NCBI GenBank assembly: GCA_039714075.1
Contig: JBDLKA010000073.1
Location: 1-18,344, forward strand
Reading direction: 5' to 3'
Source of the DNA: Candidatus Krumholzibacteriota bacterium
Lineage (GTDB): Bacteria; Krumholzibacteriota; Krumholzibacteriia; LZORAL124-64-63
Length of the DNA: 18,344 nt
This document shows positions 1 to 18,344 of the stretch, piece by piece. Made by a program: the position numbers and the translations under genes. How positions within the stretch are numbered: the stretch's first letter is position 1; every line of letters begins with the position of its first letter. A model generated the notes under the pieces. It saw nothing but the letters and a program-made list of their open reading frames with translations, made no database searches and was not told where the DNA came from.

Positions 1-712
1 GGGGATGGGCCGCGAAGTCGACCGAAAGTTTCCCCGTCAGGCGGCCCGTCGATCTGCGGGCGGTCAACGACGTCACCCCGAGCACCCTGGAGGCAAATCC
101 CCCCTCGAGGTCGAGGTCGGTGTAGGGAGCGTCCTGAAGGACCAGCGTATCGGCCGTGGCGGTGAAGGAAAAAGTCAGGTCCTCCGGCATTATCCCGCCT
201 GGAGGCGCACCCGGTGCGGCAAGGCCGGGCGCGGGCTTGTCCAGTTCCAGATTCAGATCCGTCAGGCGGATCCTGTAAGCCGCGGCCGCGGCCTCACCCT
301 CGTTCCACCGGACCGCCAGTCCCGGCCCCGACAAGTCGATCGCCCGGACCTCCAGCTTCTTCTGCAGCAAGGGCCACAGGGCCACCACCAGACTCAATTC
401 CCGGACTTCGACCGCATAGGATTCCAGATCGTTGGCCGACCCCGTGGCGGCCGCCAGGGCGGCGCCCGTGCCGCTGATGGATCCATCGGTCAGGGTCAGA
501 CGCCAATTCCCCCGCCACCGGACGCTGGTCCCGGCAAGAGAGACCTCGGCCCCGGTGGCGCGGGCCACTTCCCGTTCGATCCGGTCGGTGAAGACGTCGG
601 CGGGGATCAGCCTCGGGAGCAACAGAACAAAAGCTGCCATGACCAGCAGGATGATCCCGCCGGTTACGAGCAATCCGCGCCTGGATTGTTTCATCAACCT
701 GGGCTTTTTCAT
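1..712 (-). CDS. AsmA-like family envelope protein, N-terminal part (runs off the left edge)
   Basis: Not in the ORF track because there is no stop in the window. Manual translation from ATG 712 (alternative 694) gives MKKPRLMKQSRRGLLVTGGIILLVMAAFVLLLPRLIPADVFTDRIEREVARATG...LWPLLQKKLEVRAIDLSGP: a basic N-terminus, one TM anchor, a helix ending in ATG, and a 'PLL..l.v..i.l..P' pattern typical of AsmA N-termini. A purine-rich AAAGGAAA lies upstream, and the start is 25 nt after the mnmA stop. Confidence 0.7.
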   Translation of the reverse strand, partial: MKKPRLMKQSRRGLLVTGGIILLVMAAFVLLLPRLIPADVFTDRIEREVARATGAEVSLAGTSVRWRGNWRLTLTDGSISGTGAALAAATGSANDLESYAVEVRELSLVVALWPLLQKKLEVRAIDLSGPGLAVRWNEGEAAAAAYRIRLTDLNLELDKPAPGLAAPGAPPGGIMPEDLTFSFTATADTLVLQDAPYTDLDLEGGFASRVLGVTSLTARRSTGRLTGKLSVDFAAHP

Positions 713-737
713 AAATCTGGATTTCCTTTTTTCGTTT

Positions 738-1913
738 CTATCTGTCCGGGGAAATAATCCGGCCTCCGCCCAGTACCATGTCGCCCGCGTACAGGACCAT
801 TCCCTGCCCCGGGGCGGCGCCGTCCACGGACTCGGCAAGCTCCACCCTGATGCGGTCGCCTTCGCGGGACCAGCGGTCCACCCCGGCCCCGGTGTGGCGG
901 TGGCGGATGCTCAGGACCACCTCGCCATATTCGCCACCGGCCGGCGTCCCGGGATCGTGTCTGTCCCAACGAGCGGGCAGGTCCGGAACGGCGGCGGTGA
1001 AGTCGTCTCCCGAAACCGTCAGGGTCTCCAGTTCATGGCGCGGGCCGACCACCAGGCGGCCGCCGTCCAGATCGAGTTCCAGGACGTACAGGGGATCCGG
1101 CGCGGCCACGCCCAACCCCTTGCGCTGGCCCACCGTGTAATGGATCAAACCCTTGTGACGGCCCAGCACGTTGCCCGCCCTGTCGACGATCTCCCCGGGC
1201 AGCAACGCATGGTTTTCGTGGTCGGGAATCTGCTCGAACAGGAAGGTCCGGTCCCCGTCAGGGACAAAGCAGATCTCCTGGCTGTCGCGCTTGTCCGCCA
1301 CCCGGATGCCCAGTTGCCGGGCGGCCTCGCGCACCTGGGTCTTGACGTACCAGCCCAGCGGAAAAACCAGGCGGCCGAACAAGGCACGGTCGATGCGATG
1401 CAGGAAATAGGACTGGTCCTTGTCCGGATCGAGGCCCCGCAGCAGGCGGGCATCCGGCCCGCTGCCGGAGATCCTGGCATAGTGCCCCGTGGCCGCGAAC
1501 TTGCAGCCCTGGCGTTCAGCCAGGCGGACCAGTTCGGGAAACCGGACCACCCCGTTGCAGTCCAGGCAGGGATTGGGCGTGCGCGCCCGGGCATAATCGG
1601 CCACGAACGGTTCGATGACTTCCTGCCGGAAGGGACGCTCGACATCCCCCACCCAGTGGGGCGCGTCGAAACTCCGGGCCAGGCGGCGGGCCTCGTCGAT
1701 GGCGTCCAGGGAACAGCACGACTTGTCGGTGAAGGCGTCATCGTCGGAGTAGCAGAAGTTCTTGAAGGTGACGCACTGCACGTCGCATTCCAGCGCCCGC
1801 AGCAGGGCCAGGGTCACCGCGCTGTCCACCCCGCCGCTGATCCCCAGCAGGATCCCCGTGCCGGGCGGCAGAACCCGGCGCAGGGAATCGGGAATCGGCA
1901 GCGGAAAGGTCAA
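738..1913 (-). CDS. mnmA: tRNA 2-thiouridine(34) synthase MnmA
   Basis: PP-loop SGGVDS, TPNPCLDCN, ATGHYA, KDQSYFL, SQEICF, YTVGQRKGL and PGQ motifs. The TTG start overlaps the upstream gene's stop (TTGA). Confidence 0.97.
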   Translation of the reverse strand: MTFPLPIPDSLRRVLPPGTGILLGISGGVDSAVTLALLRALECDVQCVTFKNFCYSDDDAFTDKSCCSLDAIDEARRLARSFDAPHWVGDVERPFRQEVIEPFVADYARARTPNPCLDCNGVVRFPELVRLAERQGCKFAATGHYARISGSGPDARLLRGLDPDKDQSYFLHRIDRALFGRLVFPLGWYVKTQVREAARQLGIRVADKRDSQEICFVPDGDRTFLFEQIPDHENHALLPGEIVDRAGNVLGRHKGLIHYTVGQRKGLGVAAPDPLYVLELDLDGGRLVVGPRHELETLTVSGDDFTAAVPDLPARWDRHDPGTPAGGEYGEVVLSIRHRHTGAGVDRWSREGDRIRVELAESVDGAAPGQGMVLYAGDMVLGGGRIISPDR

Positions 1914-2714: not shown

Positions 2715-3986
2715 CTACCACCAGCGTTCCAGGCCCGTCACCGAAATGGTCAACCGCCAGATCTCGCTTTCGAGCCCGTTCTTCTCCAGATCACCGATCA
2801 AACCGTAGGAAACCGCCACGTCCAGTTCACCCAGGTTCCGGCGGAAGGGGAAGCCGGTGCCGATGCTGATCATCTTCTCTTCTACCGGTTCCGCCGCGCC
2901 GGGCTTCCCGCCCACGCCGTAGGCCCAGCGCTTGTAGCTGACGCCCAGGCGGAGGGGCAGATTGGACATGCCGCCCCGGCGCACAAATCCCTTCATGCGT
3001 TCCAGACCGACGGAAAAACCGTATTCGTCCTCCATGTCGGCCATCCATTCCTCGGGTCCGGTGAACTCGCTGAAAGGCTGGTAATGGCCGTCGGCCCCCA
3101 GGCGCCATCTCCCGACGGGGCGCAGCTGGATGCCCGCCATGTATTCGTCGGGCATCTGCATGGTATAGGAGGTCAAATACCTTTCGCTCAACCCCAGATG
3201 GGTCACCTTACGGTCCGCCTCCACCTTGTGGGCGGGAGTCCAGGAGGCGCCCGCCTGGAGCCACGAAAACGGTTCCACCAGAATGCCCCAGGTCCGGGAA
3301 GTCCCGTGGAATTCGTCATAGGTTTCCTTGACGTTCGTCTGGTAGAACGGACCATCGGAACTGGACGGGCTGGTAAAGAAGTTGTTCATGGTGGCCTTGA
3401 GCGATCCGGCTTCCAGGTTGACCGAGCCGCTGACGGACAATCCCGGCAGGATTTTCAGGGCCGCGCCGAACGGCACCCGGAAACGGTTTCCTATCCGGTT
3501 GAACTGCTGGTTGCCGCTGATGGTGTCACCCCAGACCTCGCCCCACGCCGTGTCGACCAGCGTGTGATACTGGGTGGTCCGGTGCACGACCAGGCCCGCG
3601 GTCACGGCCAACCTGTTCTTCACCACCGGGGCCGCCACGCGGATATCGGGCGCGAAGACCCTCGTATTGGTTCTTTCGCCCCCGGCGTCACGTGACATCA
3701 TCTGATCGCCGTATCCGGTGAACTTCAGCACGATGTGCCGCAGCGACGACAATGAGGACAGGTTCTTGAAGCCCGGATTGAGCGAGTCGGAAACAGCCAT
3801 GCCCCAACCGCCGCGGGCGGTCATCCGGGCATCATCGGTGGCGGTGCGCTGGCCGATATTCGCCAGGGCGAAGGGAGTCTGGGCCGCCGCCGGTAGGGAA
3901 ACCACGACCGCCAGAACAAGCGCCAGGACAACCACCGCGGCGTCCCGGGACCTCAGGTTGAATGATCTTTGCAAAAAGGTGGACAT
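2715..3986 (-). CDS. Outer-membrane beta-barrel protein, FadL/OmpP1/PorV-like superfamily
   Basis: Sec signal ending AAA-Q, N-terminal 'GGWGMA...NP' plug-like segment, amphipathic beta strands, LRLG motif and aromatic C-terminus (ERWW). The start overlaps the upstream stop (TAATG). Confidence 0.7.
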   Translation of the reverse strand: MSTFLQRSFNLRSRDAAVVVLALVLAVVVSLPAAAQTPFALANIGQRTATDDARMTARGGWGMAVSDSLNPGFKNLSSLSSLRHIVLKFTGYGDQMMSRDAGGERTNTRVFAPDIRVAAPVVKNRLAVTAGLVVHRTTQYHTLVDTAWGEVWGDTISGNQQFNRIGNRFRVPFGAALKILPGLSVSGSVNLEAGSLKATMNNFFTSPSSSDGPFYQTNVKETYDEFHGTSRTWGILVEPFSWLQAGASWTPAHKVEADRKVTHLGLSERYLTSYTMQMPDEYMAGIQLRPVGRWRLGADGHYQPFSEFTGPEEWMADMEDEYGFSVGLERMKGFVRRGGMSNLPLRLGVSYKRWAYGVGGKPGAAEPVEEKMISIGTGFPFRRNLGELDVAVSYGLIGDLEKNGLESEIWRLTISVTGLERWW

Positions 3987-5422
3987 TATTGCCCTCCCTT
4001 CTCGAGATCATCGACCAGGCTGTAGGTGATCTTCAGTTGGGGCCGCTGGGCGGGATCCGCCGCGGCGGTGCCCAGGAACCGGAACTCCCGGTAGTAGAAA
4101 TCCGGATTCACTCCGGCCGAGAAACCTTCCGGCAGGAAATCCTCGCCACCGGTGAGGATAAGCCCCCGCGTCCCCGTATAGACCTGGTTGACCACCCGGA
4201 GGACCGCCTGGGTCACATCGAATTGGATGGTCGCGTGTAAGCGGGGATCCAGGCTTGTCTGCCCGGTGATGTGGAAACTGTGGTAATCGTGCCGGTCATC
4301 GAGATCATCCAGCAGGATGGTGGCATAGGGATCGCCGAAACGTTCCACGTCCCACTCCAGAACCGAAATGGCGCCCAGGTTGCCCAAGGCGGCGAGCGTG
4401 TCGTTGGTGACACTGAGCAGGGCCCGGTTGATGAAGGCGTTCGGCGGCAGCCCGGAAAGATCGAACTGCAGGGCCGGATAAGACCGCAGGCCCGTCCGCA
4501 GCATGAACCCTCCGTCCACGTCCGGCTGCGCGGCGCCGACCTGGTCGAAGGTGCTGGTGTCCGCGAAGGGTTCCATCAGGTAGAACTGGTTGGTATCCAC
4601 GTAGTCGTTTTCGAATTCCACCACGAAATTGGGCGCCACCACGGTCCCCTTCGCCAGGTCGCTGAACTCACTGAATTTTCTGGTGTCCCGGGAACCGAAT
4701 CCCACCAGGCCCGGGTCCGAAGGAGTATCCAGCTGCACCACGATGCCGATGGGCGCACCTTCATCGAACCAGCGCACGAAATCCGCGGGATACATGCGCA
4801 GGAAGGGCTCGTCCGACTCGTTGGGCTCCTGGAAATCCGAATTCAACAGAGGGGCCAGAACCGGCGGCACCACGTTTTCACCCCAGCCGCTGTAGTCCTC
4901 CGGGTCGAAGGGGGTCTCGAGCTGCTTGAGAAGATAATAGAGGTCCACGGGCTGGCCGGTGGGCTTGTCACGGTCGGGAGTGTCGTCGTCCACATCCCGC
5001 AGGTAGGCCTGGTAGAATCTCGGTTTGAGCAGGCTGAACTTGACCGTCTTGATGTTCTCCACCGTAAACAGGCTGTCGGGAAAGGCAACCGTGTCCCGGG
5101 GAACGGTCTCACTGTCAAAGCTGAAGTCGAAGTTGGCGAGGATCGAAGAGCGGGTATCTCCCTGTTCCCCGAGATAGACCAGCTGCTGTTCGTGCACCGG
5201 GATTTCCGGGTTCTCCACCTTCAGGGCGGAATACCGGGTGACCTCCTCCACGCCCAGGGGAACCAGGACCGTGTCGATCCTGTCGGTCACCAGGCCCGTC
5301 CCGACGACATTGGGTTCATCGCTGGTGCAGCCGGCGGCCGCCAGAATCAGCAGGGCCGCCACGAAAGCCGGCCACACGATGTAGCGACCGGGTCTTGAGG
5401 GATGGACGTTGGTGGGCTTCAA
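3986..5422 (-). CDS. Large acidic lipoprotein, reminiscent of DUF4270-type FCB lipoproteins
   Basis: TTG start with AAGGAGAGG RBS, hydrophobic signal and AAAG-C lipobox, 'C..D...VG..L' after the lipid Cys, and C-terminal 'RPQLKITYS'. The family name is by resemblance only. Confidence 0.7.
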   Translation of the reverse strand: MKPTNVHPSRPGRYIVWPAFVAALLILAAAGCTSDEPNVVGTGLVTDRIDTVLVPLGVEEVTRYSALKVENPEIPVHEQQLVYLGEQGDTRSSILANFDFSFDSETVPRDTVAFPDSLFTVENIKTVKFSLLKPRFYQAYLRDVDDDTPDRDKPTGQPVDLYYLLKQLETPFDPEDYSGWGENVVPPVLAPLLNSDFQEPNESDEPFLRMYPADFVRWFDEGAPIGIVVQLDTPSDPGLVGFGSRDTRKFSEFSDLAKGTVVAPNFVVEFENDYVDTNQFYLMEPFADTSTFDQVGAAQPDVDGGFMLRTGLRSYPALQFDLSGLPPNAFINRALLSVTNDTLAALGNLGAISVLEWDVERFGDPYATILLDDLDDRHDYHSFHITGQTSLDPRLHATIQFDVTQAVLRVVNQVYTGTRGLILTGGEDFLPEGFSAGVNPDFYYREFRFLGTAAADPAQRPQLKITYSLVDDLEKGGQ

Positions 5423-5441: not shown

Positions 5442-5852
5442 TCAGCGCGCCGCCGGCACGCGGGCCGACAGGCTGACGCGGTTGAAACCGCTCCGTTTGA
5501 TGGTGTCGATCAATTCCACCACGTCACCGTGGGCGGCCTTTTCGTCCGCCCGGAGAACCATGCGGTCCTCGCCGGTTTCGGTGTGCATTTTCTCGAGTCG
5601 GCCGGCCAGGGTCTCCAGGTCGATCAACATGTCGTTAAGGTAGACCACGCCGTCGGCGGACAGGTACAGGATCGCCGGGGTGTCCACCGTCTCCGAAGCC
5701 GTGGCGCTGCGGGGAAGAACCAGGTTGATCGCCGGCTGGTTCTTGAAGGTCGACGTGACCATGAAGAAGATCAGCAGCAGAAACATCACGTCGATCAGCG
5801 TGGTGATGTTTATGATCAGCCCGCGGCCCTTTTTTCGGGGACGGAAATTCAT
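5442..5852 (-). CDS. exbD: Biopolymer transporter ExbD/TolR
   Basis: INITTLIDVMFLLLIFFMVT TM segment with the conserved Asp, and periplasmic 'LRADEKA.HG.VV..ID' motif. ATGA overlap with exbB. Confidence 0.93.
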   Translation of the reverse strand: MNFRPRKKGRGLIINITTLIDVMFLLLIFFMVTSTFKNQPAINLVLPRSATASETVDTPAILYLSADGVVYLNDMLIDLETLAGRLEKMHTETGEDRMVLRADEKAAHGDVVELIDTIKRSGFNRVSLSARVPAAR

Positions 5853-6502
5853 CGGCCCGCCGCCGTTCCGGCTTCATGTCCGGCGGCGGTCTGTTCGACC
5901 TGGCGCCGGCGCAGCGTGTCCAGGACCTTGGAGGAATAGAACTCCAGGTCAAAGATGATACGATCGGCCCGGCCGTTCAACCAATTGTAGGCCACCAGTG
6001 CGGGAATACCGATGATCAGGCCCGCCGCGGTGGTCACCATGGCCTCGCTGATCCCGCTGGAAAGCGTTTCGGGATTCCCCAGCCCGGCCAGGGAAATGGT
6101 CGCGAATACCCGGATCATGCCGAGCACCGTGCCGAGCAGCCCCAGCAGGGGCGACACCGCCGCCACGGTCTCGAGAACCCCCAGCCGGCGCGTCAGCAGC
6201 GTGGACTCCTGGCGTCCGGTTTCCTCCAGAACGTCACGGATGACGGTCCAGTCGTTGTCGGCGTGGTCCAGGCCGGCCCGCACCAGGTTGGCGAAGGGCC
6301 CCGGCTGCCGGTCGCAGATGGCGTAGGCCACCGACAGATCCTTGCTCGCGGACAGGGTCATGACCGCTTCGGCGATTTCCGGAATGATGATCCGCCGCTG
6401 CCGCAGCACGTAGATTCGTTCGATGAGCACCGCCATCCCCACCAGCGAAGCCAGGGAAATGGGGATCATCATGTAGCGTCCGGCCAGTATCATTTCCCAC
6501 AT
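5849..6502 (-). CDS. exbB: MotA/TolQ/ExbB proton channel protein
   Basis: PLLGLLGTVLGMI..F and GISEAMVTTAAGL..GIPA signature segments, three TM helices, GGAGG RBS. Confidence 0.94.
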   Translation of the reverse strand: MWEMILAGRYMMIPISLASLVGMAVLIERIYVLRQRRIIIPEIAEAVMTLSASKDLSVAYAICDRQPGPFANLVRAGLDHADNDWTVIRDVLEETGRQESTLLTRRLGVLETVAAVSPLLGLLGTVLGMIRVFATISLAGLGNPETLSSGISEAMVTTAAGLIIGIPALVAYNWLNGRADRIIFDLEFYSSKVLDTLRRRQVEQTAAGHEAGTAAGR

Positions 6503-6568
6503 TCGGGATCAAACCTCCGTCATTGAAATGGCAGGGGTGATTCTTCCCCGCGCCGCGCCGTCATATCC

Positions 6569-7609
6569 TCAACGCCGGAACGCAGGATAGTGCAGGCCAA
6601 GGGTGATAACAAGATTCTCTTCCGGAAAATGCTCGGGAAGAGGCCAATAGGGAGCAAAAGCCTTCAAGGCGGCTTCGGACGCGTCGTGCAGGGAATCGTG
6701 GCCATCGGTTTCCAGGACCTCCATGGACTGGACCCTGCCGTCCTTCCGAATGACCAGCTTGATCACGGTCATGCCGCTGATCACCCCGATCCGGTAGGCG
6801 TAGGGCGCCATCCAGTGGCGGTACAGTTCGTTCTGGAACCGGGTCATCCAGGGGGCGTAATCCCATTCATAGGTGTTCAGGCTGTAGTCGCCGTTGAAGG
6901 CCACGCCCGCCTGGACCTTGCCCCGGGCCACCTGGTTGAAATCGAAACCGCGGTCCCCCACGGCTCCCTGCTCGCCCTCCTTGAGGATCGTGGGCGCCTC
7001 GCCGCCCCACCAGTCCTCCAGTTCGGGTTGTTTCTCGTCCTGCCGGTCGGCCTGTTCCCCTTCGTCGGCCCCGCCGGATTCGGAATCTTCCCGGGGCAGG
7101 ACCCATTCACCGGAGGGGTCGATGTCCTCGCCCTCGACTTTTTCCCGTTCCTGTCCCGCGGCCCCCGTCTCCGTCGGGCTGGTGGCCGACTCGGTTTCGG
7201 GCAGAGGCTGTTGCGCGTTCTGGACACCGTCGGCGCCGGCTTTTTCATCCTTTTGGATCCGGACCTGCTCCGCCAGCCATTCCTCGTCCGCGGACGGCGT
7301 ATCGGAATCACCGCCCAATTTGTTGTCCGCCGCCAGGGAATGGTGCTGGGCCAGATAGTCCGGATTCTCCGGCGCGGTCTCACTGGCCTGGCGTTCGGGC
7401 ACCGCCGTAAAAGCCTGGGGCAGTTCGTCGGCCGGATCGGCGGGCTCCTCGTCCGGCATCAGGAACAGTTCGACTTCCCTTTCCAGGTCGTCGGCCATGG
7501 CGGAGTCCACCGAGGGAGTCAGGGGGATGCGCCACGTCACCGCCGCCAGCACCAGATGCAACAGCAACGACAGGGCGAAGGCTCCCTGAATGACTCTTCT
7601 TTCCTGCAT
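6569..7609 (-). CDS. TonB/TolA-family energy transducer
   Basis: Probable start is ATG 7609 (the track extends to 7663). N-terminal TM with S-x3-H (SLLLH), long acidic linker, and a C-terminal TonB/TolA-like domain (...LVIRKDGRV.......G...L..A...A....APY.PLP). Lies directly upstream of exbB/exbD. Confidence 0.85.
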   Translation of the reverse strand: MQERRVIQGAFALSLLLHLVLAAVTWRIPLTPSVDSAMADDLEREVELFLMPDEEPADPADELPQAFTAVPERQASETAPENPDYLAQHHSLAADNKLGGDSDTPSADEEWLAEQVRIQKDEKAGADGVQNAQQPLPETESATSPTETGAAGQEREKVEGEDIDPSGEWVLPREDSESGGADEGEQADRQDEKQPELEDWWGGEAPTILKEGEQGAVGDRGFDFNQVARGKVQAGVAFNGDYSLNTYEWDYAPWMTRFQNELYRHWMAPYAYRIGVISGMTVIKLVIRKDGRVQSMEVLETDGHDSLHDASEAALKAFAPYWPLPEHFPEENLVITLGLHYPAFRR

Positions 7610-7719
7610 CGGTACGACTTTCCCGCAATTCCCGTTTGAAGCAGACATCCACCAGGCAGTCACCGGAGGCGACTGCTGGGGAAAAGGTACCCCGTGCCGG
7701 TCTTAATTGCCAACCCGGG

Positions 7720-8745: not shown

Positions 8746-11514
8746 TTATTTGAGCAACATGACCTTGTGGATCAAGGTGTTTTCAGGCGTACTGATGCGC
8801 AGCAGATAGACACCCCCACCCGCCGGCCGGCCCTGGTGCCTGCCGTCCCACTGCAGATCATGATCCCCCGCCCCGTGCCAACCATCAGCCAGGATGGCGA
8901 CCCTCCGCCCGGCCAGGTCATAGACCCCCGCGGTGACCTCGGCCCCTCGGGCGAGGGTGAACCGGGCATGGACCAGGGGGTTGAAGGGGTTGGGCCAGGG
9001 TTCGCGGGCCCAGGCCGCACCGGGCATGTCCCGCTCAGCGGCCGCGGGACACAGATCCGCCAGGGCCAGGTCCAGGGATTCGGAATCCCCGTCCGCGCCC
9101 ACCGTCAAACGCAGCCAGCCATCTCCGGGGAGCCCCTCCAGTTCCCGGCGGGGCACGGTGATGATCCAGGTATCCCGGTCATAATCCAGATCCCCCAGCA
9201 CCGCCCGGCCCGTGACCGCCAGCGGAGTCCAATGCCCGGGGGAACCGAAGGCGACTGTCCAGGGTCCGGGGCGATCCGGACGGACCCGGACCTTCAGCAC
9301 CGCCGGACTGCATTCCGCCGCCAAGGCGGTCGGTTCCACGGCCACCAGCTCGGGTTCCATGTTGAGCAGGGTCAAACCCAGCCTCAGGGAACTGTCCAGG
9401 GTCAGGATATCCGCCACGCCGTCGGAGTTGAAATCCCCCACCCTGAATTCCGACACGCTCGGGCCGCCGGGATAGGTGACGGTTTGCGACCAGGTCCAAT
9501 TGCCGAGGGGAAATGAAATACCGAATACCTTGTCTTCGCGAAGGTTCATCACGATCTCGGGCAGGCCGTCCTGGTCCATATCCCGGACCAGAATCCCCGC
9601 CGGACGGCTCGCCAGGGCATGGGCGCCGACGCGTCTGACCAGGGAGCCGGTGCCCGAATTCTCGAACATGGACAACGAGACGTCGATCTTGTTGACGACC
9701 ACCAGGTCCTCGTCCCCGTCCTGGTCCAGATCGCCCACGGCCATGATACCCGGCCCCGAACCGGCGTTCAGCCAGCTCATGGTTCCGAAGGAGCGGTCAC
9801 CCTGGTTGATGGTGGTCCAGACACGGTTGAATCCATCCGAAAAAACCAGATCGGGCAGGCCGTCGGCATCCAGATCCAGCAGCGAAATCCAATCCGCCCC
9901 GTTGTCCAGGCCCAGGAAGGTCTGATCGGGAAAGGAGTGGTCGCCGGCCCCGAACAGGATGGTGACCTCATCCACTTCCCGCGTGAGGATCAGCAGGTCC
10001 TCGAACCCGTCGGCGTCCAGGTCCCGGGAAATGATGAAGCCCGGGAAATCCCCCGTCGGCGTCTCGGAAACGAGGGCGAAACCCTGGCCCGGCACATAGT
10101 CCGCAATGACCATCCGGTCCCCCGCAATGTCCAGAATCGCCAGTTCGGGAGCGGGATCGTCATCGGTGTCGACCACCGCCACCTTGCCCGGGAAAAAGGA
10201 AAGATCGAAACCCACCGGTGTGGTGGCGAAGCCCCCGCCGACATGTCCGGGAAAGAAGCTGAGAAGGGGCAGGTCGCCATTGGCGACCACCAGATCCCGC
10301 AGGCCGTCACCGTCAAAATCCCCCATTTCGGAGGCACCCGGGCTGGCATTGAGAGCCAGGGCGGGATACCCCCCGAAACCCGGTCTGGTATTGGCGAACA
10401 TGACGGTCAAACGATTACCGTCGCCGCCAAGGGACACCAGGTCGCGCCCGCCGTCCCCGTTGAAATCACCGGAGGCCGTGCTCAAGGGGTGGCAGCCCGG
10501 ATAATAGGCGCTGATCATGTCCCAGGACCCGTTGCGGAGCTGGAAAAATTCCACCAGGCCGCGGCCCATGTTCGAAGCGAACAGTCCGACCGTCCCATCG
10601 TACAATCCGGTCAGATGAAGCCCGTCGGCCGGCAAGGTCAGCCCGACGGTTTCGGTTTCCACCAACTGGCCGCCCACCGCGTTGAAGAAGACCGCCTCCG
10701 GGACACCTTCAACCGTGGCCGCCAGCTCGATCCGGCCGTCACCGTCCAGGTCGTGGGCCGCCAGATGGGTGGGCGTGCCCGCCGGGAACTCCTGCCGGGT
10801 TCCCGCATACGAACCAGAGGCATCCCGGCGATAGATTCCGAGGTTTTCGGAAAGCGGCCCCCGGTTGGCCGTCACAAGCTCACGGACCTGATCTCCGTCC
10901 AGGTCGATACCCATGATGGAGAACGGCCGGTCGCCCGTGTCATGCAGCGCGGCGATATTCCAGAGGCCTTCATCCTGTTTCAGCAAGGCAACCTGATCGA
11001 TGCCGGGCAGGGAAACCGCCAGCTCGGGAACACCTCCGACCACTTCTCCGACAAAGGAAAGTGTCCCCGGATCCTCGTCGAGGTCGACAATTTCCTCGAT
11101 GGTGAAATAGGGTGCCTGCGCAAGGACCTGGAGAAAAACGACACGGTCCGGATTGGCGGTGGCGGCCACAACTCCCTGATTGAGCAGCGGGCGCCCCTCC
11201 CAGGGGACCAGGTGGACGACCTTACCTCCGACCAGAATATTATCGACCTGCAAAAACCTATCCGCCCCCGCGGAGTAACGGAACAAGGTCAGGGCCCCGT
11301 CTCCGCTCCCGGCCACCAGGTAGGCGGGATTGCCCACCTCCAGGGGAAGGGAAACCGCGCTGAGGGCTTCACCGCCGACTTCCATCACTTGGGGACCGGG
11401 AAATTGGACCTGGGAACGGGCAGGAACAGCCACTATCAGGCAGATCAGGACCATAACAACCGCAACCATGGTTATCGGTGCCTTCCTTGGCGAGACAAGG
11501 ATTTGGGGGATCAT
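8746..11514 (-). CDS. Secreted FG-GAP/VCBS repeat protein with C-terminal FlgD-Ig (T9SS type A-like) domain
   Basis: About 10 DxDxDG..D/E-hydrophobic motifs (e.g. GDFNGDGGRDLV, GDFDGDGLRDLV, GDLDQDGDEDLV) and a signal peptide ending ARS-Q. C-terminus reads PWPNPFNP...YDLAGRRV...WDG...GVYLLRI...KVMLLK. The start is uncertain (11532 TTG, 11514 or 11469 ATG). Confidence 0.88.
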   Translation of the reverse strand: MIPQILVSPRKAPITMVAVVMVLICLIVAVPARSQVQFPGPQVMEVGGEALSAVSLPLEVGNPAYLVAGSGDGALTLFRYSAGADRFLQVDNILVGGKVVHLVPWEGRPLLNQGVVAATANPDRVVFLQVLAQAPYFTIEEIVDLDEDPGTLSFVGEVVGGVPELAVSLPGIDQVALLKQDEGLWNIAALHDTGDRPFSIMGIDLDGDQVRELVTANRGPLSENLGIYRRDASGSYAGTRQEFPAGTPTHLAAHDLDGDGRIELAATVEGVPEAVFFNAVGGQLVETETVGLTLPADGLHLTGLYDGTVGLFASNMGRGLVEFFQLRNGSWDMISAYYPGCHPLSTASGDFNGDGGRDLVSLGGDGNRLTVMFANTRPGFGGYPALALNASPGASEMGDFDGDGLRDLVVANGDLPLLSFFPGHVGGGFATTPVGFDLSFFPGKVAVVDTDDDPAPELAILDIAGDRMVIADYVPGQGFALVSETPTGDFPGFIISRDLDADGFEDLLILTREVDEVTILFGAGDHSFPDQTFLGLDNGADWISLLDLDADGLPDLVFSDGFNRVWTTINQGDRSFGTMSWLNAGSGPGIMAVGDLDQDGDEDLVVVNKIDVSLSMFENSGTGSLVRRVGAHALASRPAGILVRDMDQDGLPEIVMNLREDKVFGISFPLGNWTWSQTVTYPGGPSVSEFRVGDFNSDGVADILTLDSSLRLGLTLLNMEPELVAVEPTALAAECSPAVLKVRVRPDRPGPWTVAFGSPGHWTPLAVTGRAVLGDLDYDRDTWIITVPRRELEGLPGDGWLRLTVGADGDSESLDLALADLCPAAAERDMPGAAWAREPWPNPFNPLVHARFTLARGAEVTAGVYDLAGRRVAILADGWHGAGDHDLQWDGRHQGRPAGGGVYLLRISTPENTLIHKVMLLK

Positions 11515-11565
11515 CTGCAGGACCAGGGCCAAGAATACTCTCTTTTCGCCGGCCGGGGTGACATC

Positions 11566-12728: not shown

Positions 12729-14294
12729 CTACCAGGACTGTTCCGACATCAGGGGGCCGATCTCGCGGCGGAATTCCAGGGCCTCCCGTACATGTGCCCT
12801 GCCGACCCGATCCTGCTGGTCAAGCGCGGCCAATGTCCTGGCCACGGACAGGCACCGTTTCACACCCCTGAGCGACAGGCCCAAAGGCAGGCGGGAATCA
12901 TCCAGGAATGCCGCCGCCTCCGGGGCCAGGAGTTTCCGGACATCGGTTTGGCGCCAACCGCACAGGCGTTGCCGCGCCGATACCAGGATCTCTTCGGTGG
13001 GGCGCTCCCGCCATGCTCCGGGGGCACCGGCGGGGCCGCCGCCTTTTCCCCTGCCGGGATTTTTCCTGGTCAGGAATTTTCCCTGCCAGGGCCCCACCTC
13101 AACGAACAGGTCGAACCGATCCAGCAGTGGCCCGGAAAGTCGCGACAGGTAGCGGGACCGCGCGGCCGGCGTGCAGCGACAGGTGCGCTGGGTGCTGCCC
13201 AGGAAACCGCAGCGGCAGGGATTCATGGCCGCCACCAGCTGGAATTCCGCAGGGAAGGTGTGGCTGCCCGGATGGCGCACCAGGGTGATGAAACCCTCTT
13301 CCAGGGGCTCGCGCAGAACATCCAGGACCGCCGGGGAAAACTCCGGCAGCTCATCGAGGAACAGGAGTCCGCCGTGGGCCAGGGTCACTTCACCGGGCTT
13401 GGGCCCGGGCCCTCCGCCGACCAGCCCCGCCCGCGTGACCGTATGGTGCGGCGCGCGAAATGGCCGGTGCTCCATGAGAGCGGTTTCCCCCAGCATGCCC
13501 GCGGCGCTGTGGATGCAGGTCACCTCCATGGCCCGGTCCCGGTTCATGGGCGGTTGCATTTGGCCGAGAATCCGGGCCAGGCGGGTTTTTCCCGTCCCCG
13601 GGGGTCCCACCATCAACAGATGGTGCCCCCCGACAGCCGCCAGGACCGCGGCTTTTCTCACCAGGGGCTGACCCGCCAAACCCGCCAGAAGATTGGTCAG
13701 GGACGGCTCGGGAACTCTCGTCGACGGAGGTGGGACCGGTCCCGGGTCGGACGGACCCGCCTGCGGTGACCGCCCCGTCCGCCACCAGCGAATGACCTGG
13801 GCCAGATTCGCCGCCCCCACCACCTGGATTCCCTCGACCAGGCCCGCTTCCCAGGTCTGGTCCACGGGCACGACCACCATTTTTTCTCCCATGCGGGCCG
13901 CCGCCAGCACGATGGCCAACAGCCCCCGGACCGGCCGCAGTTCCCCGAACAGGGAAAGTTCGCCGATGAACAGGGCGCCCGACCTGAGGCTGCGCTCCTG
14001 GTCCCGGGCCGGCGGTTCGGCGGCCGCGACAATGCCCATGGCGATGGCGAGATCAAAAAACGCCCCCTCCTTGCGGATGCCTGCAGGGGCCAGATTGACG
14101 GTGATTTTCCCCACCGGAATCCGCGATCCGCTGTGCCGCAGGGCCGCCAGGACCCGCTCCCGGCTTTCGCGGACCTCGGCCCCCGGTAGTCCCACCAGGT
14201 GAAACCCGGGCAGACCCCGGCTGATATCCACTTCCGCGGTTACGGCCAAACCTTCGATTCCGGCCAGGGCGCCGGTTCTGATCCTGGTCGACAT
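12729..14294 (-). CDS. comM: YifB/ComM family Mg-chelatase-like AAA+ ATPase
   Basis: GLP.F..VGLP...VRESRERV, Walker A GPPGTGKT, RPFRAPHH, PGE..LAH.G.LFLDELPEF, AMNPC.CG...C.C and SGPLLDRFD motifs. GGAGGGAG RBS. Confidence 0.94.
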   Translation of the reverse strand: MSTRIRTGALAGIEGLAVTAEVDISRGLPGFHLVGLPGAEVRESRERVLAALRHSGSRIPVGKITVNLAPAGIRKEGAFFDLAIAMGIVAAAEPPARDQERSLRSGALFIGELSLFGELRPVRGLLAIVLAAARMGEKMVVVPVDQTWEAGLVEGIQVVGAANLAQVIRWWRTGRSPQAGPSDPGPVPPPSTRVPEPSLTNLLAGLAGQPLVRKAAVLAAVGGHHLLMVGPPGTGKTRLARILGQMQPPMNRDRAMEVTCIHSAAGMLGETALMEHRPFRAPHHTVTRAGLVGGGPGPKPGEVTLAHGGLLFLDELPEFSPAVLDVLREPLEEGFITLVRHPGSHTFPAEFQLVAAMNPCRCGFLGSTQRTCRCTPAARSRYLSRLSGPLLDRFDLFVEVGPWQGKFLTRKNPGRGKGGGPAGAPGAWRERPTEEILVSARQRLCGWRQTDVRKLLAPEAAAFLDDSRLPLGLSLRGVKRCLSVARTLAALDQQDRVGRAHVREALEFRREIGPLMSEQSW

Positions 14295-14332
14295 GATTCT
14301 CCCTCCGGGCCGGAAACCCTGCCGACCTTGTC

Positions 14333-14349
14333 TGCAATAAACCCGCCAG
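14333..14349 (-). promoter_or_regulatory. Candidate sigma54 (-24/-12) promoter of comM
   Basis: Minus strand CTGGCGGGTTTATTGCA, i.e. TGGC-N7-TTGCA with exact GG-N10-GC spacing, about 40 nt upstream of the ATG. Confidence 0.55.
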
Positions 14350-14512
14350 CTCCTTCCCCGGGGGAAACCACCCGGAAAAGGGGGACCGGCGCGGGATCAC
14401 GGACATTTGAATCAACTGGAGATCATTCGCCCCGCAGTGGGGCGTCAACCGGGAGAGACAACAATCCCCAGGCGGGAAAACGGGATTGTCGTTCAGAATC
14501 CTGAAGCCACAT

Positions 14513-14546
14513 AAAAAAAGCGGGAACCCCGGTCAGGGCTCCCGCT
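14513..14546 (-). terminator. Rho-independent terminator of the histone-fold gene
   Basis: Minus strand GCGGGAGCCC-tgaccg-GGGTTCCCGC (one G-U pair) followed by T7, 50 nt after the stop. Confidence 0.85.
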
Positions 14547-14596
14547 GAATCCAAAAGGCGCAATCGCAAGATCAGGCCTTACAGTGTCGCTTTCTG

Positions 14597-14767
14597 CTAC
14601 AGATCGCAGGGGCGAACAGTCTTGCGACCGTTGTCCTTGGCGCGACCTTCGGCAGCGGCGATCATTTCACGAACCTTGGCGTCCAGGGCGCTGTAGAATT
14701 CGCCGGACACGTTGCATTCCTTCACGGATTCCTTGGTCTTGCTCTTGCTGATAATCATGTCAGCCAT
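14597..14767 (-). CDS. Bacterial histone-fold protein (56 aa, alpha3-truncated; DUF1931/Bd0055/face-to-face-like)
   Basis: MADMIISKSKTKESVKECNVSGEFYSALDAKVREMIAAAEGRAKDNGRKTVRPCDL, with AAGGGAGG RBS 7 nt before ATG 14767. Shows the histone signature RA...GRKTV...D (R48-x-T50-x4-D55) and a short helix, loop, long helix layout. Confidence 0.9.
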   Translation of the reverse strand: MADMIISKSKTKESVKECNVSGEFYSALDAKVREMIAAAEGRAKDNGRKTVRPCDL

Positions 14768-14916
14768 GTGGGATCCTCCCTTAGAGTGTTGGTCGTCTTC
14801 CGGTCTCGGCCCAAAGGCGGAGCGGCACCGAAAACCGACTTCCTTCATTTCCAGCTCCGGAATTAACGCATCTCCGGTCAGCTGCGACACAATCGCCTCG
14901 ACAGGCGTCGCTGTCA

Positions 14917-14944
14917 AGAGTAGTTTAACCTGCGGTCCCGTCAA
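14917..14944 (-). promoter_or_regulatory. Candidate sigma70 promoter of the histone gene
   Basis: Minus strand TTGACG-N16-TACTCT. A second candidate, TTGACA-N17-GATTGT, lies at 14917-14889. Confidence 0.45.
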
Positions 14945-15001
14945 CGGGAAAACCCGTCAAATGGCCCCCAAGCCCCGAAAAGCTACCAGAAGGAGTTTTC
15001 C

Positions 15002-16375
15002 ATGGCCAGCGAAAAAATTCTCGGCTATCTGGACAGCCACCGCGATGAACACGTCGACCAGCTGGTCGAGTTTCTCAAGATACCCAGCATCAGTTCCCAG
15101 AGTGATCACGATGAGGACACCCGGCGGGCGGCCGCCTTCGTCGCCGACGAGTTGAAGGAACTGGGCCTGACCGTTGAAGTCATCGACCTGGGCGGCCACC
15201 CCCTGGTCTACGCCGAAACCGAAATCCGTCCCGACCGCAAGACCCTCCTGTTCTACGGGCATTACGATGTGCAACCGGTGGATCCGCTGGATTTATGGGA
15301 CACGCCGCCGTTCGAACCGCGGATCGAAAACGGCATCATCTACGCGCGCGGCGCGTGTGACGACAAAGGCCAGGTCTACACCCACCTCAAGGCCGTGGAA
15401 GCCTATATCCGGCAGGGAATCGAATTGCCGGTGAACGTGAAGTTCATCATCGAGGGCGAAGAGGAAGCCGGCGGCGAAAGCATCTACAAGTATACCGAAC
15501 AGAACGCGGAAAAGATGGCCTGCGACGCGGTCATCGTCTCGGACACCGCTTTGTACAACGAGACCACGCCGGGCATCTGCTACAGCCTGAAGGGGCTGGC
15601 CTACATGGAGATCCAGGTCACCGGCCCGGCCATGGACCTGCACTCCGGCAGCTACGGCGGCACGGTGCAGAATCCCGGCAACGCCCTGGCGGAAATCGTG
15701 GCCAATCTGAAGGATGAAGACGGCCGCTGCCTGATCCCCGGTTTCTATGACGACGTGCTGGAACTGGACCAGGAGGAACGCGACGGCTTCGCCGAACTGG
15801 GCTACACCGACGAGATCCTGTGCAAGGAAACCGGCGCCAACGCGGCGTTCGGTGAAAAAGGCTTCACGACCCTGGAACGGATGTGGGCCCGGCCGACCTG
15901 CGACGTCAACGGGCTGTTGAGCGGCTATGGCGGCGAGGGCGCCAAGACCATCATTCCGGCCACGGCCATGGCCAAGGTCTCGATGCGGCTGGTGCCCAAC
16001 CAGGAACCGGATAAGATCGCCAAGGCCTTCTCGGACTACGTGCTGTCGATCGCCCCGGCGGGCGTGAAGGTCGAGGTCATCGACCACCACGGCGCCAACC
16101 CGGTCCTGGTGCCCCGCAAATCCGATATGATGCAGGCGGGAATGGCCGCTCTGGAGAAGGGTTTCGGCGCCAAACCCGTGTTCATTCGCGAGGGCGGCAG
16201 CATTCCCATCGTCGGCACCTTCCAGAAGTGCCTCAAATCCCCGGTATTGCTGCTGGGTTACGGTTTGTCGACGGACAACATCCATTCCCCCAACGAGAAG
16301 TTCCATCTGGACAACTTCTGGCGGGGGGCCCGCACGTCGGCCATTCTCATGGAAGAGGCCGCCAAACAGGGCTGA
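15002..16375 (+). CDS. M20 family metallopeptidase (ArgE/DapE-like dipeptidase)
   Basis: YGHYDVQP, RGACDDKGQ, EGEEE, DLHSG, GGSIP and HSPNE motifs. AAGGAG RBS. Confidence 0.94.
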   Translation: MASEKILGYLDSHRDEHVDQLVEFLKIPSISSQSDHDEDTRRAAAFVADELKELGLTVEVIDLGGHPLVYAETEIRPDRKTLLFYGHYDVQPVDPLDLWDTPPFEPRIENGIIYARGACDDKGQVYTHLKAVEAYIRQGIELPVNVKFIIEGEEEAGGESIYKYTEQNAEKMACDAVIVSDTALYNETTPGICYSLKGLAYMEIQVTGPAMDLHSGSYGGTVQNPGNALAEIVANLKDEDGRCLIPGFYDDVLELDQEERDGFAELGYTDEILCKETGANAAFGEKGFTTLERMWARPTCDVNGLLSGYGGEGAKTIIPATAMAKVSMRLVPNQEPDKIAKAFSDYVLSIAPAGVKVEVIDHHGANPVLVPRKSDMMQAGMAALEKGFGAKPVFIREGGSIPIVGTFQKCLKSPVLLLGYGLSTDNIHSPNEKFHLDNFWRGARTSAILMEEAAKQG

Positions 16376-17705: not shown

Positions 17706-18344
17706 TCAGCGCACCAGCGTCACCGACCCCTTGGACACAACTTGGCCTACTTCAAGGACATAGATGTAACGACCCGAAGACACAACCGAGCCCGACCGAC
17801 CTGTTCCATCCCATTGAATGACCAGCCGGTGGTTGGCGACTTCCCCGCCACGGAGTGTGTTGACCAGGGCGCCGCGGATATCAAAAATCCTCAGGACACC
17901 GGATCCGCTCTCGGCAGCCAGACCGACCGGAAGGGCCATCTCGATGCTCGTGCGGGGGTTGCAGGGATTGGGAAAAGCGCTGCTGGTCATCTGCAGAGGC
18001 CGGTCTTCGCCGCCCAGGAAGAACCCGGCCAGCATGCTCTTGAGCCCGTCCACCCACTGGGGATGCACCAGATCATGGTTTTCGATGCTGCCCGCAACCG
18101 TGGCCAGGGGGCCCCCGAAAAGGGCCCGGATGTCTTCAGCCAGGATTTCCCGGGCCCGGTCCGCGTGGATGGCGTCAACCGCGAGTGACGATTCGTCCAA
18201 CTGGCGGAGCTCCATGTAGGCGTTCCAGCGAGCGGGATAATCGTCGATGAAAGCCCAGGTCAACACGTGGCCCATTTCATGGGTGGTGATGTAGGCTACG
18301 GTGGAGGGATCCACAGGCCCGGTACCCGGTGAGAGGTAGATGGC
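17706..18344 (-). CDS. HEXXH-motif protein with C-terminal FlgD-Ig (T9SS type A-like) domain, C-terminal part (begins beyond the right edge)
   Basis: The frame is open to the window edge (AIYLSPGTGPVDPST...). Contains HEMGH plus a downstream E..AE (REILAED), and a C-terminus FPNPCNP...FDIRGALV...WDG...SGRYIY. Confidence 0.78.
   Translation of the reverse strand, partial: AIYLSPGTGPVDPSTVAYITTHEMGHVLTWAFIDDYPARWNAYMELRQLDESSLAVDAIHADRAREILAEDIRALFGGPLATVAGSIENHDLVHPQWVDGLKSMLAGFFLGGEDRPLQMTSSAFPNPCNPRTSIEMALPVGLAAESGSGVLRIFDIRGALVNTLRGGEVANHRLVIQWDGTGRSGSVVSSGRYIYVLEVGQVVSKGSVTLVR

Follow-up and report, generated by a model that had tools for sequence, protein, structure and literature searches.

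A tail-less, alpha3-truncated histone of the face-to-face class in Candidatus Krumholzibacteriota

Bacterial histones have been recognised as chromatin proteins only since 2023 and have been studied in Bdellovibrio and Leptospira. Here we describe a 56-codon histone gene in a contig of a Candidatus Krumholzibacteriota bacterium (GenBank assembly GCA_039714075.1, contig JBDLKA010000073.1, 18,344 nt; this whole stretch of DNA is called the window below) and compare its product with family members of known structure. Schwab et al. 2024 define histones of the face-to-face (FtF) class by a toroidal tetramer, an interface arginine and asparagine (R41/N45 in D4GZE0; R48/N52 in the hidden Markov model), the motif RxTxxxxD, and a salt bridge between the interface arginine and the carboxylate of the residue that follows the clamp aspartate (PMC11390915). 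In alpha3-truncated histones, alpha3 has 3-4 residues and alpha2 is 4-5 residues shorter than in nucleosomal histones (PMC11390915). The same study describes bacterial dimer histones as being without the FtF interface arginine and asparagine and without a confident oligomer larger than the dimer, and a positively charged N-terminal tail, carried by most bacterial FtF histones, as common and not defining (PMC11390915).

HTkC of Thermococcus kodakarensis (9F2C) is an archaeal FtF histone (PMC11390915), and HLp of Leptospira perolatii (9QT0-2) is a tetrameric bacterial one (bioRxiv 10.1101/2025.05.08.652872). In HTkC, the substitution R45A results in a dimer, as seen by size-exclusion chromatography with multi-angle light scattering (bioRxiv 10.64898/2025.12.06.692711). 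In the HLp tetramer, R49, S52 and N53 of one dimer are bonded to F63, T61 and R55 of its counterpart; DNA binding is non-specific, and about 60 bp are wrapped per tetramer (bioRxiv 10.1101/2025.05.08.652872). Wrapping of ~50-60 bp together with compaction by the FtF tetramer has been shown for HLp and HTkC. HTkC is highly expressed and its deletion impairs growth (bioRxiv 10.64898/2025.12.06.692711), and the Leptospira interrogans histone is described as essential and among the top 2% of expressed genes.

The gene that we compare with these systems is the following:

Positions 14597..14767, minus strand: histone gene, 56 codons and a TAG stop, as read from its translation, its homologues and dN/dS (the ratio of nonsynonymous to synonymous substitution)

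The product (6.15 kDa, computed pI 8.7) starts MADMIISKSKTK and ends RAKDNGRKTVRPCDL, directly before the stop (translation of 14767-14597, minus strand). It carries R42, N46, R48, T50 and D55 and has L56 as its last residue, a spacing identical to that of the FtF hallmarks. The arginine-aspartate (RD) clamp and the threonine of loop L2 lie in R48-K-T50-VRPC-D55; in an alignment of 146 sequences (A1), R48, T50 and D55 are invariant, as is N46, and R42 is at least 90% conserved. A search for close homologues returned 172 proteins at E<=1e-3, and the FtF motif is kept in 119 of the 120 that were listed (73-98% identity), the exception having N for T. Among 268 retrieved sequences, 239 end in RxTx4D and one further residue. 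Nearly all of these 239 keep the interface arginine (237) and all keep the asparagine, and their last residue is most often L (217), otherwise I (13), V (5), F (3) or C (1).

Searches of the PDB ranked the solved FtF histones first. With the window protein as phmmer query, HTkC (9F2C) was matched at E 1.2e-6, HLp (9QT0) at E 0.035 and HBb (8FVX/8CMP, the dimeric HBb/Bd0055) at about 0.05; HmvA and HMfB were not among the matches listed for this single-sequence search. With a profile of 109 family members, HTkC (9F2C) was matched at E 4.7e-13 (52.4 bits), HLp (9QT0) at 1.8e-6 (31.3 bits), HBb (8FVX/8CMP) at about 2e-4 (24.6 bits), HmvA at 0.052 and HMfB at 0.8. Judged by these sequence scores, the best solved relative of the window protein is the archaeal FtF histone HTkC.

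HTkC is, like the window protein, tail-less and of similar length (59 vs 56 residues). Its R45 falls on R42 in the phmmer alignment, and the two proteins share RxTx4D and an end one residue past the aspartate. HTkC differs in being archaeal, in coexisting with nucleosomal histones, in an L1 region four residues longer and in a glutamate aligned with N46. Wrapping, hypercompaction and a growth defect have been measured for HTkC (bioRxiv 10.64898/2025.12.06.692711), whereas the window protein is known from its sequence and a model. In HLp, R49, N53, R55 and the C-terminal residue correspond to R42, N46, R48 and L56, and the clamp R55/D62 to R48/D55; HLp differs in an identity of only ~36% (profile E as above) and in a short N-terminal extension. 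The RD clamp R48/D55 and the SK motif of alpha1, both pointed out in the earlier note, were confirmed by the alignments to HTkC, HLp and HBb.

A monomer model was built with AlphaFold2 (AF2) from the 146-sequence alignment, and the pLDDT (predicted local distance difference test) score was 83.7. Helix alpha1 spans residues 8-14 and alpha2 residues 22-45 (24 residues), followed by L2 and an alpha3 stub; no helix was called after residue 45, and the model has no long alpha3. When compared with the PDB by Foldseek, the top nine matches were chains of HTkC, HBb and HLp, all alpha3-truncated, at template modelling (TM) scores of 0.86-0.91. The first was 9f2c_A of HTkC (TM 0.89, root-mean-square deviation 0.9 A, 42% identity), and classical histone folds came next at TM about 0.45-0.6. 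Model and matches are thus in line with the truncated-alpha3 histone fold claimed for this protein from its letters alone.

Prediction with four copies gave an interaction prediction score from aligned errors (ipSAE) of 0.88 in each of three runs, compared with 0.17 for the best of three controls. The partner had a pLDDT of at least 91, and between runs the agreement was at least 100% of contacts, counted on the smaller set. The mark for this score is reached by 20 of 30 solved one-chain pairs and by 1 of 23 solved single chains, a calibration that holds only roughly here because our own alignment and four copies were used. In the model, the scored chain contacts its handshake partner along residues 3-56 and a third chain via residues 41-42, 45-46, 48, 52 and 54-55, which are the FtF interface residues. 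The salt bridge between R42 and the carboxylate is present in the model only, as contacts of 41-42 with 54-55. Both the handshake dimer and the tetramer expected by the earlier note are therefore found in the prediction.

We also weighed a dimer histone of the HBb/Bd0055 kind, which would stay dimeric and bend DNA instead of wrapping it as a tetramer. HBb/Bd0055 (Bdellovibrio bacteriovorus; 8FVX, 8CMP, 9EZZ) shares the alpha3-truncated fold, the SK motif of alpha1, RKT and the RD clamp, is likewise a tail-less singlet, and its chains are among the top Foldseek matches. Also, R48-K49-T50 has the RKT form noted for bacterial dimers and nucleosomal histones (PMC11390915). However, S and D occupy the interface columns of HBb in the alignment; HBb is dimeric and bends DNA or binds it end-on, and its chain runs ~5 residues past the D-x end, whereas the window protein stops at D-L like HTkC and HLp. 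Dimer histones are without the interface arginine and asparagine, which the window protein and essentially all of its relatives keep; the family profile places HBb 28 bits under HTkC, and the four-copy model puts a third chain on the FtF interface residues, with the dimer-dimer interface confidently modelled. We consider an HBb-like dimer quite unlikely. Because R42 and N46 are present, the chain ends right after D-L, the profile ranks HTkC and HLp above HBb and the four-copy model has the interface, the window protein is assigned to the alpha3-truncated histones of the face-to-face class, which is also where the earlier note had placed it. A nucleosomal (HMf-type) histone, in which a complete alpha3 of about 10 residues builds the four-helix bundle used in open-ended stacking, does not fit: no alpha3 helix extends beyond the final four residues, and the family profile matches HMfB at E 0.8 only.

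Several observations weigh against this assignment. The only Pfam family matched by the window protein is DUF1931 (PF09123; Aq_328-type pseudodimers, and the name given to the relatives by NCBI), and the match is sub-threshold (E 0.012; 16.3 bits vs a gathering cut-off of 21.8) and covers positions 22-53 of a 138-position doublet model; Hu et al. report that DUF1931 pseudodimers cluster apart from FtF histones. Pfam gave no match to CBFD_NFYB_HMF, and NCBIfam gave no family. The protein opens MADMIISK straight into alpha1, without the tail of most bacterial FtF histones, and is only mildly basic (11 K+R vs 9 D+E, pI 8.7). No Foldseek match in the PDB reached E 0.001 (best 4.2e-3), weak values being expected because the query has only 56 residues. 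The complex prediction may reflect resemblance to the HTkC and HLp tetramers, which are solved, and not independent support; its contacts are reported for one chain only, and closure of the torus is not directly seen. A sigma-70 scan of 14300-15100 returned no promoter at threshold. The profile check proposed earlier thus fell below the cut-off for the window protein itself, but relatives fared better: when 109 family members were scanned against Pfam one by one, 107 matched DUF1931 at E<=0.1 (best 3.7e-5) and 32 matched CBFD_NFYB_HMF (best E 0.005).

Taken together, the best explanation, to which we give a probability of about 0.78, is a tail-less, alpha3-truncated FtF histone whose handshake dimers would form a toroidal tetramer that binds and wraps DNA non-specifically. 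As modelled, two chains would form the handshake dimer, and two dimers would close into a toroidal tetramer, meeting where alpha2 ends, at loop L2 and at the C-terminal stub, in agreement with the interfaces solved for HTkC and HLp. L56 of one dimer would offer its terminal carboxylate to R42 of the other, and R48 would be the partner of N46. By homology only, the tetramer would bind DNA non-specifically and wrap it. The HLp DNA contacts A13, S14, K15, K17, K21, T27, G29, T56 and T57 fall on K8, S9, K10, K12, K16, V20, G22, K49 and T50 in the profile alignment, and by this analogy the likely contacts are the alpha1 lysines K8, K10, K12 and K16 and, in loops L1 and L2, G22, K49 and T50. K12 is at least 90% conserved in alignment A1 and is the counterpart of the alpha1 lysine that is strongly conserved in the FtF profile (PMC11390915).

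A cysteine, Cys18, lies in loop L1 (motif CNVSG; codon at ~14714-14716, minus strand) and is invariant in all 109 aligned family members. It recurs in many tailed relatives, HLp and HBb being without cysteine at that position, and in the predicted structure it touches T50 and V51 of the partner chain.

The earlier note had proposed that the short gene is hidden within a mis-started frame, with a strong ribosome-binding site and a terminator of its own. The features concerned are these:

Positions 14775..14782, minus strand: Shine-Dalgarno sequence AAGGGAGG, its GGAGG ending 7 nt ahead of the ATG
Positions 14512..14546, minus strand: intrinsic terminator with a 12-bp stem (8 G-C), a 4-nt loop and 7 T, ~50 nt past the stop

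In the mechanical list of open reading frames (ORFs), the histone frame occurs only as 14597..14944 (minus strand), 115 residues with a TTG start at 14944. This longer frame is open in the window, and the upstream frame is open for >150 nt in some relatives too, as would be expected if it were the real gene or if the short ORF were a chance frame in G+C-rich DNA. To judge this, related loci were compared. A scan of one genome per species found that 162 species genomes encode a relative, and all locus-level counts (neighbourhood, element, leader and start) rest on the best 80 of these 162, at 68-96% identity. The histone ORF was found by script in 78 of the 80 loci, which are used for the start statistics. 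An in-frame stop lies <=60 nt upstream of the ATG in 37 of the 78 loci, and in 45 there is no alternative in-frame ATG, GTG or TTG between the ATG and the nearest upstream stop. Furthermore, 108 of the 120 listed close homologues have exactly 56 residues, and the DNA upstream of the ATG carries the Shine-Dalgarno sequence and a conserved non-coding element.

When the window gene was compared by the Nei-Gojobori method with 67 loci that have a 56-codon ORF, the median proportion of synonymous differences (pS) was 0.475 and that of nonsynonymous differences (pN) 0.119. Over the 64 pairs with finite dS, dN/dS had a median of 0.16 and a maximum of 0.41; these values apply to the 56 codons and indicate that the histone gene is under purifying selection. 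The 115-residue TTG frame is an artefact of mechanical ORF calling, and a gene of that length, or a chance ORF, can practically be dismissed. The gene is hidden in the mechanical track, but not in public annotations, which already call the 56-residue protein and name close homologues 'DUF1931 domain-containing protein [Candidatus Krumholzibacteriia bacterium]' or, at JGI, 'histone H3/H4'. Its G+C content (0.56; 0.74 at third codon positions, GC3) is somewhat lower than that of its neighbours (0.61-0.68; GC3 0.77-0.85), which says little because only 56 lysine-rich codons are involved.

The expression signals downstream of the promoter region held up as well. GGAGG lies <=20 nt from the histone start in 68 of the 78 loci. 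The terminator stem (14546..14519) is followed by TTTTTTT and has a folding energy of -22.6 kcal/mol; the scanned region holds three terminator-like sites, compared with 1.1 expected from shuffles, and 48 of 76 related loci have a comparable hairpin with a T-run <=160 nt downstream. The histone gene forms a transcription unit of its own, provided with a strong ribosome-binding site and a terminator.

Upstream of the gene, two further features were found:

Positions 14888..14926, minus strand: conserved intergenic element AAACTA-nn-C-TTGACA-N8-TGTCGAGGCGATTGTG, 39 nt
Positions 14792..14884, minus strand: leader with two predicted hairpins, HP1 at 14852-14884 and HP2 at 14792-14839

Read in the direction of the histone gene, the element contains a perfect TTGACA (14912-14917), a 17-nt spacer and GATTGT (14889-14894), ~120 nt upstream. 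In the direction of the divergent M20 peptidase gene, TCGACA and TAGTTT are read with 18 nt between them. An imperfect inverted repeat, TTGACA...TGTCGA, is part of the element, which occurs once in the window. A 16-mer of the element (<=3 mismatches) is found on the histone strand <=300 nt upstream in 72 of 77 loci with enough upstream DNA. Because four of the five loci without it (L060, L067, L078, L079) are also without the M20 neighbour, the element may serve M20, histone or both. Its sequence makes it a candidate for two divergent promoters that face each other or, alternatively, for an operator. The promoter of its own that the earlier note had given to the gene thus has the conserved TTGACA-N17-GATTGT in its favour and the empty sigma-70 scan against it. 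In a subset of more distant loci, an additional and better sigma-70-like site lies 60-95 nt before the histone ATG.

HP2 of the leader ends ~10 nt before the Shine-Dalgarno sequence. In the window alone the leader fold is not significant (z = -1.17). Across 77 loci, the region from -90 to -18 had a median z of -1.2, with 18 loci below -2, whereas 69 coding controls had a median of -0.11, with 2 below -2 (Mann-Whitney p 1.3e-5). Stem sequences vary from locus to locus. Since RNAalifold, run on a MAFFT alignment of 30 leaders, returned no consensus hairpin (2 trivial pairs, no covariation), the argument for leader structure is made from per-sequence z-scores only. Rfam gave no match in 14400-15100 at E<=1.

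The histone gene is flanked by the following genes:

Positions 15002..16375, plus strand: M20-family peptidase gene (Pfam Peptidase_M20, E 1e-35), divergent, 234 nt from the histone ATG
Positions 12729..14294, minus strand: YifB/ComM-type Mg-chelatase-like AAA+ gene (Pfam Mg_chelatase, E 7.8e-80)

The M20 gene is divergent and no more than 400 nt from the histone gene in 72 of the 79 loci whose flank is long enough; the two genes are syntenic, a functional link not being known. The YifB gene starts 302 nt past the histone stop, on the same strand and beyond the terminator. Of 65 loci, 44 have YifB immediately next to the histone gene on its downstream side, and in 17 an insert of 0.7-2.6 kb intervenes; beyond YifB come an outer-membrane beta-barrel gene (OMP) and then an FG-GAP gene or MurB. 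Where all three genes are present (66 loci), the histone has a median identity to the window copy of 84%, M20 of 75% and YifB of 56%. The histone neighbourhood is conserved across Krumholzibacteriota and allied candidate phyla and differs from that of HLp, whose neighbours are SMC, MAP and DUF350; here they are the M20 peptidase, YifB and the OMP gene. The histone occurs without M20 and YifB neighbours in Eisenbacteria-labelled loci and a few others (L060, L067, L071, L078-L080).

Inserts between histone and YifB were seen at L021, L035, L042, L045, L051, L056, L057, L065, L066, L069, L070 and L073-L077, and ORFs of the L042 and L073 inserts had no Pfam match. Elsewhere in the window, two ORFs on the minus strand, at 2715-5422 and 5442-7663 (423 and 478 residues), are without a Pfam match and adjoin a set of ExbD, ExbB and TonB_C genes. 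An AsmA-like fragment lies at the window start (2-838, minus strand), and FG-GAP and FlgD_ig-domain proteins are encoded at 8746-11532 and 17706-18314.

So constant a neighbourhood (M20 divergent in 72 of 79 loci, YifB downstream in 61 of 65), with the shared intergenic element kept in 72 of 77 loci, could also mean that a true FtF fold has taken on a specialised role, as a condition-specific nucleoid protein or as a local regulator tied to M20 and YifB/ComM. The modest net charge of the protein would be compatible with such a role. Schwab et al. also warn against taking every 'histone' for a global organiser, and in Thermococcus the expression of FtF histones changes with conditions (PMC11390915). 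Nevertheless, a terminator separates the histone gene from YifB, the six loci listed above keep the histone without M20 and YifB, and those FtF histones that have been characterised show non-specific DNA binding and are either abundant or of importance to growth. We regard a specialised role as unlikely. A separate unit with a strong ribosome-binding site, a terminator and a fixed neighbourhood fits a core nucleoid-organising protein better than an accessory or mobile one, and we infer that the FtF histone is such a core protein. If HLp, the L. interrogans histone and HTkC are a guide, it would be an abundant nucleoid protein, and chromatin in this lineage would be histone-based.

The best 80 of the 162 genomes are labelled Krumholzibacteriota (25), 'Fibrobacteraceae' (20), Eiseniibacteriota (3), Gemmatimonadota (2) and Latescibacterota (1), with no phylum given for 29. 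The earlier note had guessed at a lineage of the FCB (Fibrobacterota, Chlorobiota and Bacteroidota) type. This proved apt, as relatives are labelled Krumholzibacteriia or Krumholzibacteriota and the phylum is placed in the FCB superphylum (PMC10936416); NCBI taxonomy puts Krumholzibacteriota directly under Bacteria. The 20 records of 'uncultured Fibrobacteraceae bacterium' and two Gemmatimonadales/Gemmatimonas records have the order M20-histone-YifB as in Krumholzibacteriia (L021, L026, L031, L035, L038 and ~15 more), and their labels are probably placeholders or the result of mis-binning.

An exhaustive search of representative proteins with no length filter returned 215 at E<=1e-3. The nearest relatives outside the family have 55-68% identity over the fold and lysine-rich N-terminal tails. 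Those closest outside the FCB set are Planctomycetota 'DUF1931 domain-containing' tailed, FtF-type histones, which share IISKS(K/R)TK, CNV-G-(E/D)FY-ALD and N-(G/K)-RKT-x4-DL with the window protein. They differ in carrying tails of 15-50 residues, the Krumholzibacteriota family having none. When one tailed relative (P0130) was used as query, 1322 matches were obtained, and the names among the 120 listed were Planctomycetota/Planctomycetes and one 'bacterium'. Further out are tail-less forms of 55-58 residues and tandem doublets of ~120 residues.

Reading of individual sequences added several observations. Doublets of ~115-125 residues (P0131, P0132, P0138, P0140, P0142, P0150 and others) repeat this FtF-like fold in tandem and have N-x-R-x-T-x4-D in each half. 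P0186, P0204 and P0243 have a hydrophobic, signal-peptide-like segment ahead of the histone folds, which is odd for a DNA binder. P0124, P0129, P0149, P0159, P0164, P0165 and others have the exact histone N-terminus followed by unrelated sequence; they are probably frameshifted reads or chimeric contigs and were excluded from the alignments.

A maximum-likelihood tree of 213 histone cores (56 columns) had good support at 8 of 202 inner branches, and the window protein was in no supported clade. FCB loci cluster on this tree (7 changes vs 63.7 in shuffles). Because the tree is poorly supported, we name no donor, sister group or single origin. Plasmid-borne FtF histones are known in haloarchaea. 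Indeed, the plasmid collection gave 82 records at <60% identity; the 20 that were listed are haloarchaeal, as are the ten genera met most often, and these matches gave no sign of the window gene being plasmid-borne. The phage collection held no match to the histone.

The window histone enlarges a family that is already known and does not found a new one, because FtF structures are solved, DNA wrapping has been measured and relatives are already labelled in databases. The phyla listed as 'predominant' for FtF histones are Spirochaetota, Planctomycetota, Bdellovibrionota and Myxococcota (PMC11390915). A full-text literature search returned no paper with both Krumholzibacter* and histone, although the supplementary taxon figures of Schwab et al. 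are not text-searchable and may already show the lineage. In the supplements of Hocher et al. 2023, 'Krumholz' was found only in the list of surveyed assemblies (Table S4) and not in the histone tables searched; with four supplementary files outside the search, this shows neither presence nor absence. What appears to be new, in that we did not find it in print, is the conservation and the fixed neighbourhood across Krumholzibacteriota and allied candidate phyla.

These results leave the picture of what FtF histones are unchanged. They add an FtF histone that is tail-less, tightly conserved and encoded in at least 162 species genomes, mainly of Krumholzibacteriota and allied candidate phyla, together with a fixed gene neighbourhood and a conserved upstream control region, and they extend the known range of the class. 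The bare 56-residue fold offers a simpler bacterial FtF protein for biochemistry, and the lineage is one in which the replacement of HU by histones can be asked about. Tentatively, and with more doubt than confidence, one might go further: the FtF histone could be a vertically inherited core gene and the principal nucleoid organiser of Krumholzibacteriota and its neighbours (Eisenbacteria, Latescibacterota, Delphinibacteria-type), possibly replacing HU, with its dosage set by the divergent element and the structured leader. If so, Bdellovibrionota and Leptospirales would be joined by one more bacterial lineage whose chromatin is based on histones, and a tail-less bacterial FtF tetramer would be sufficient.

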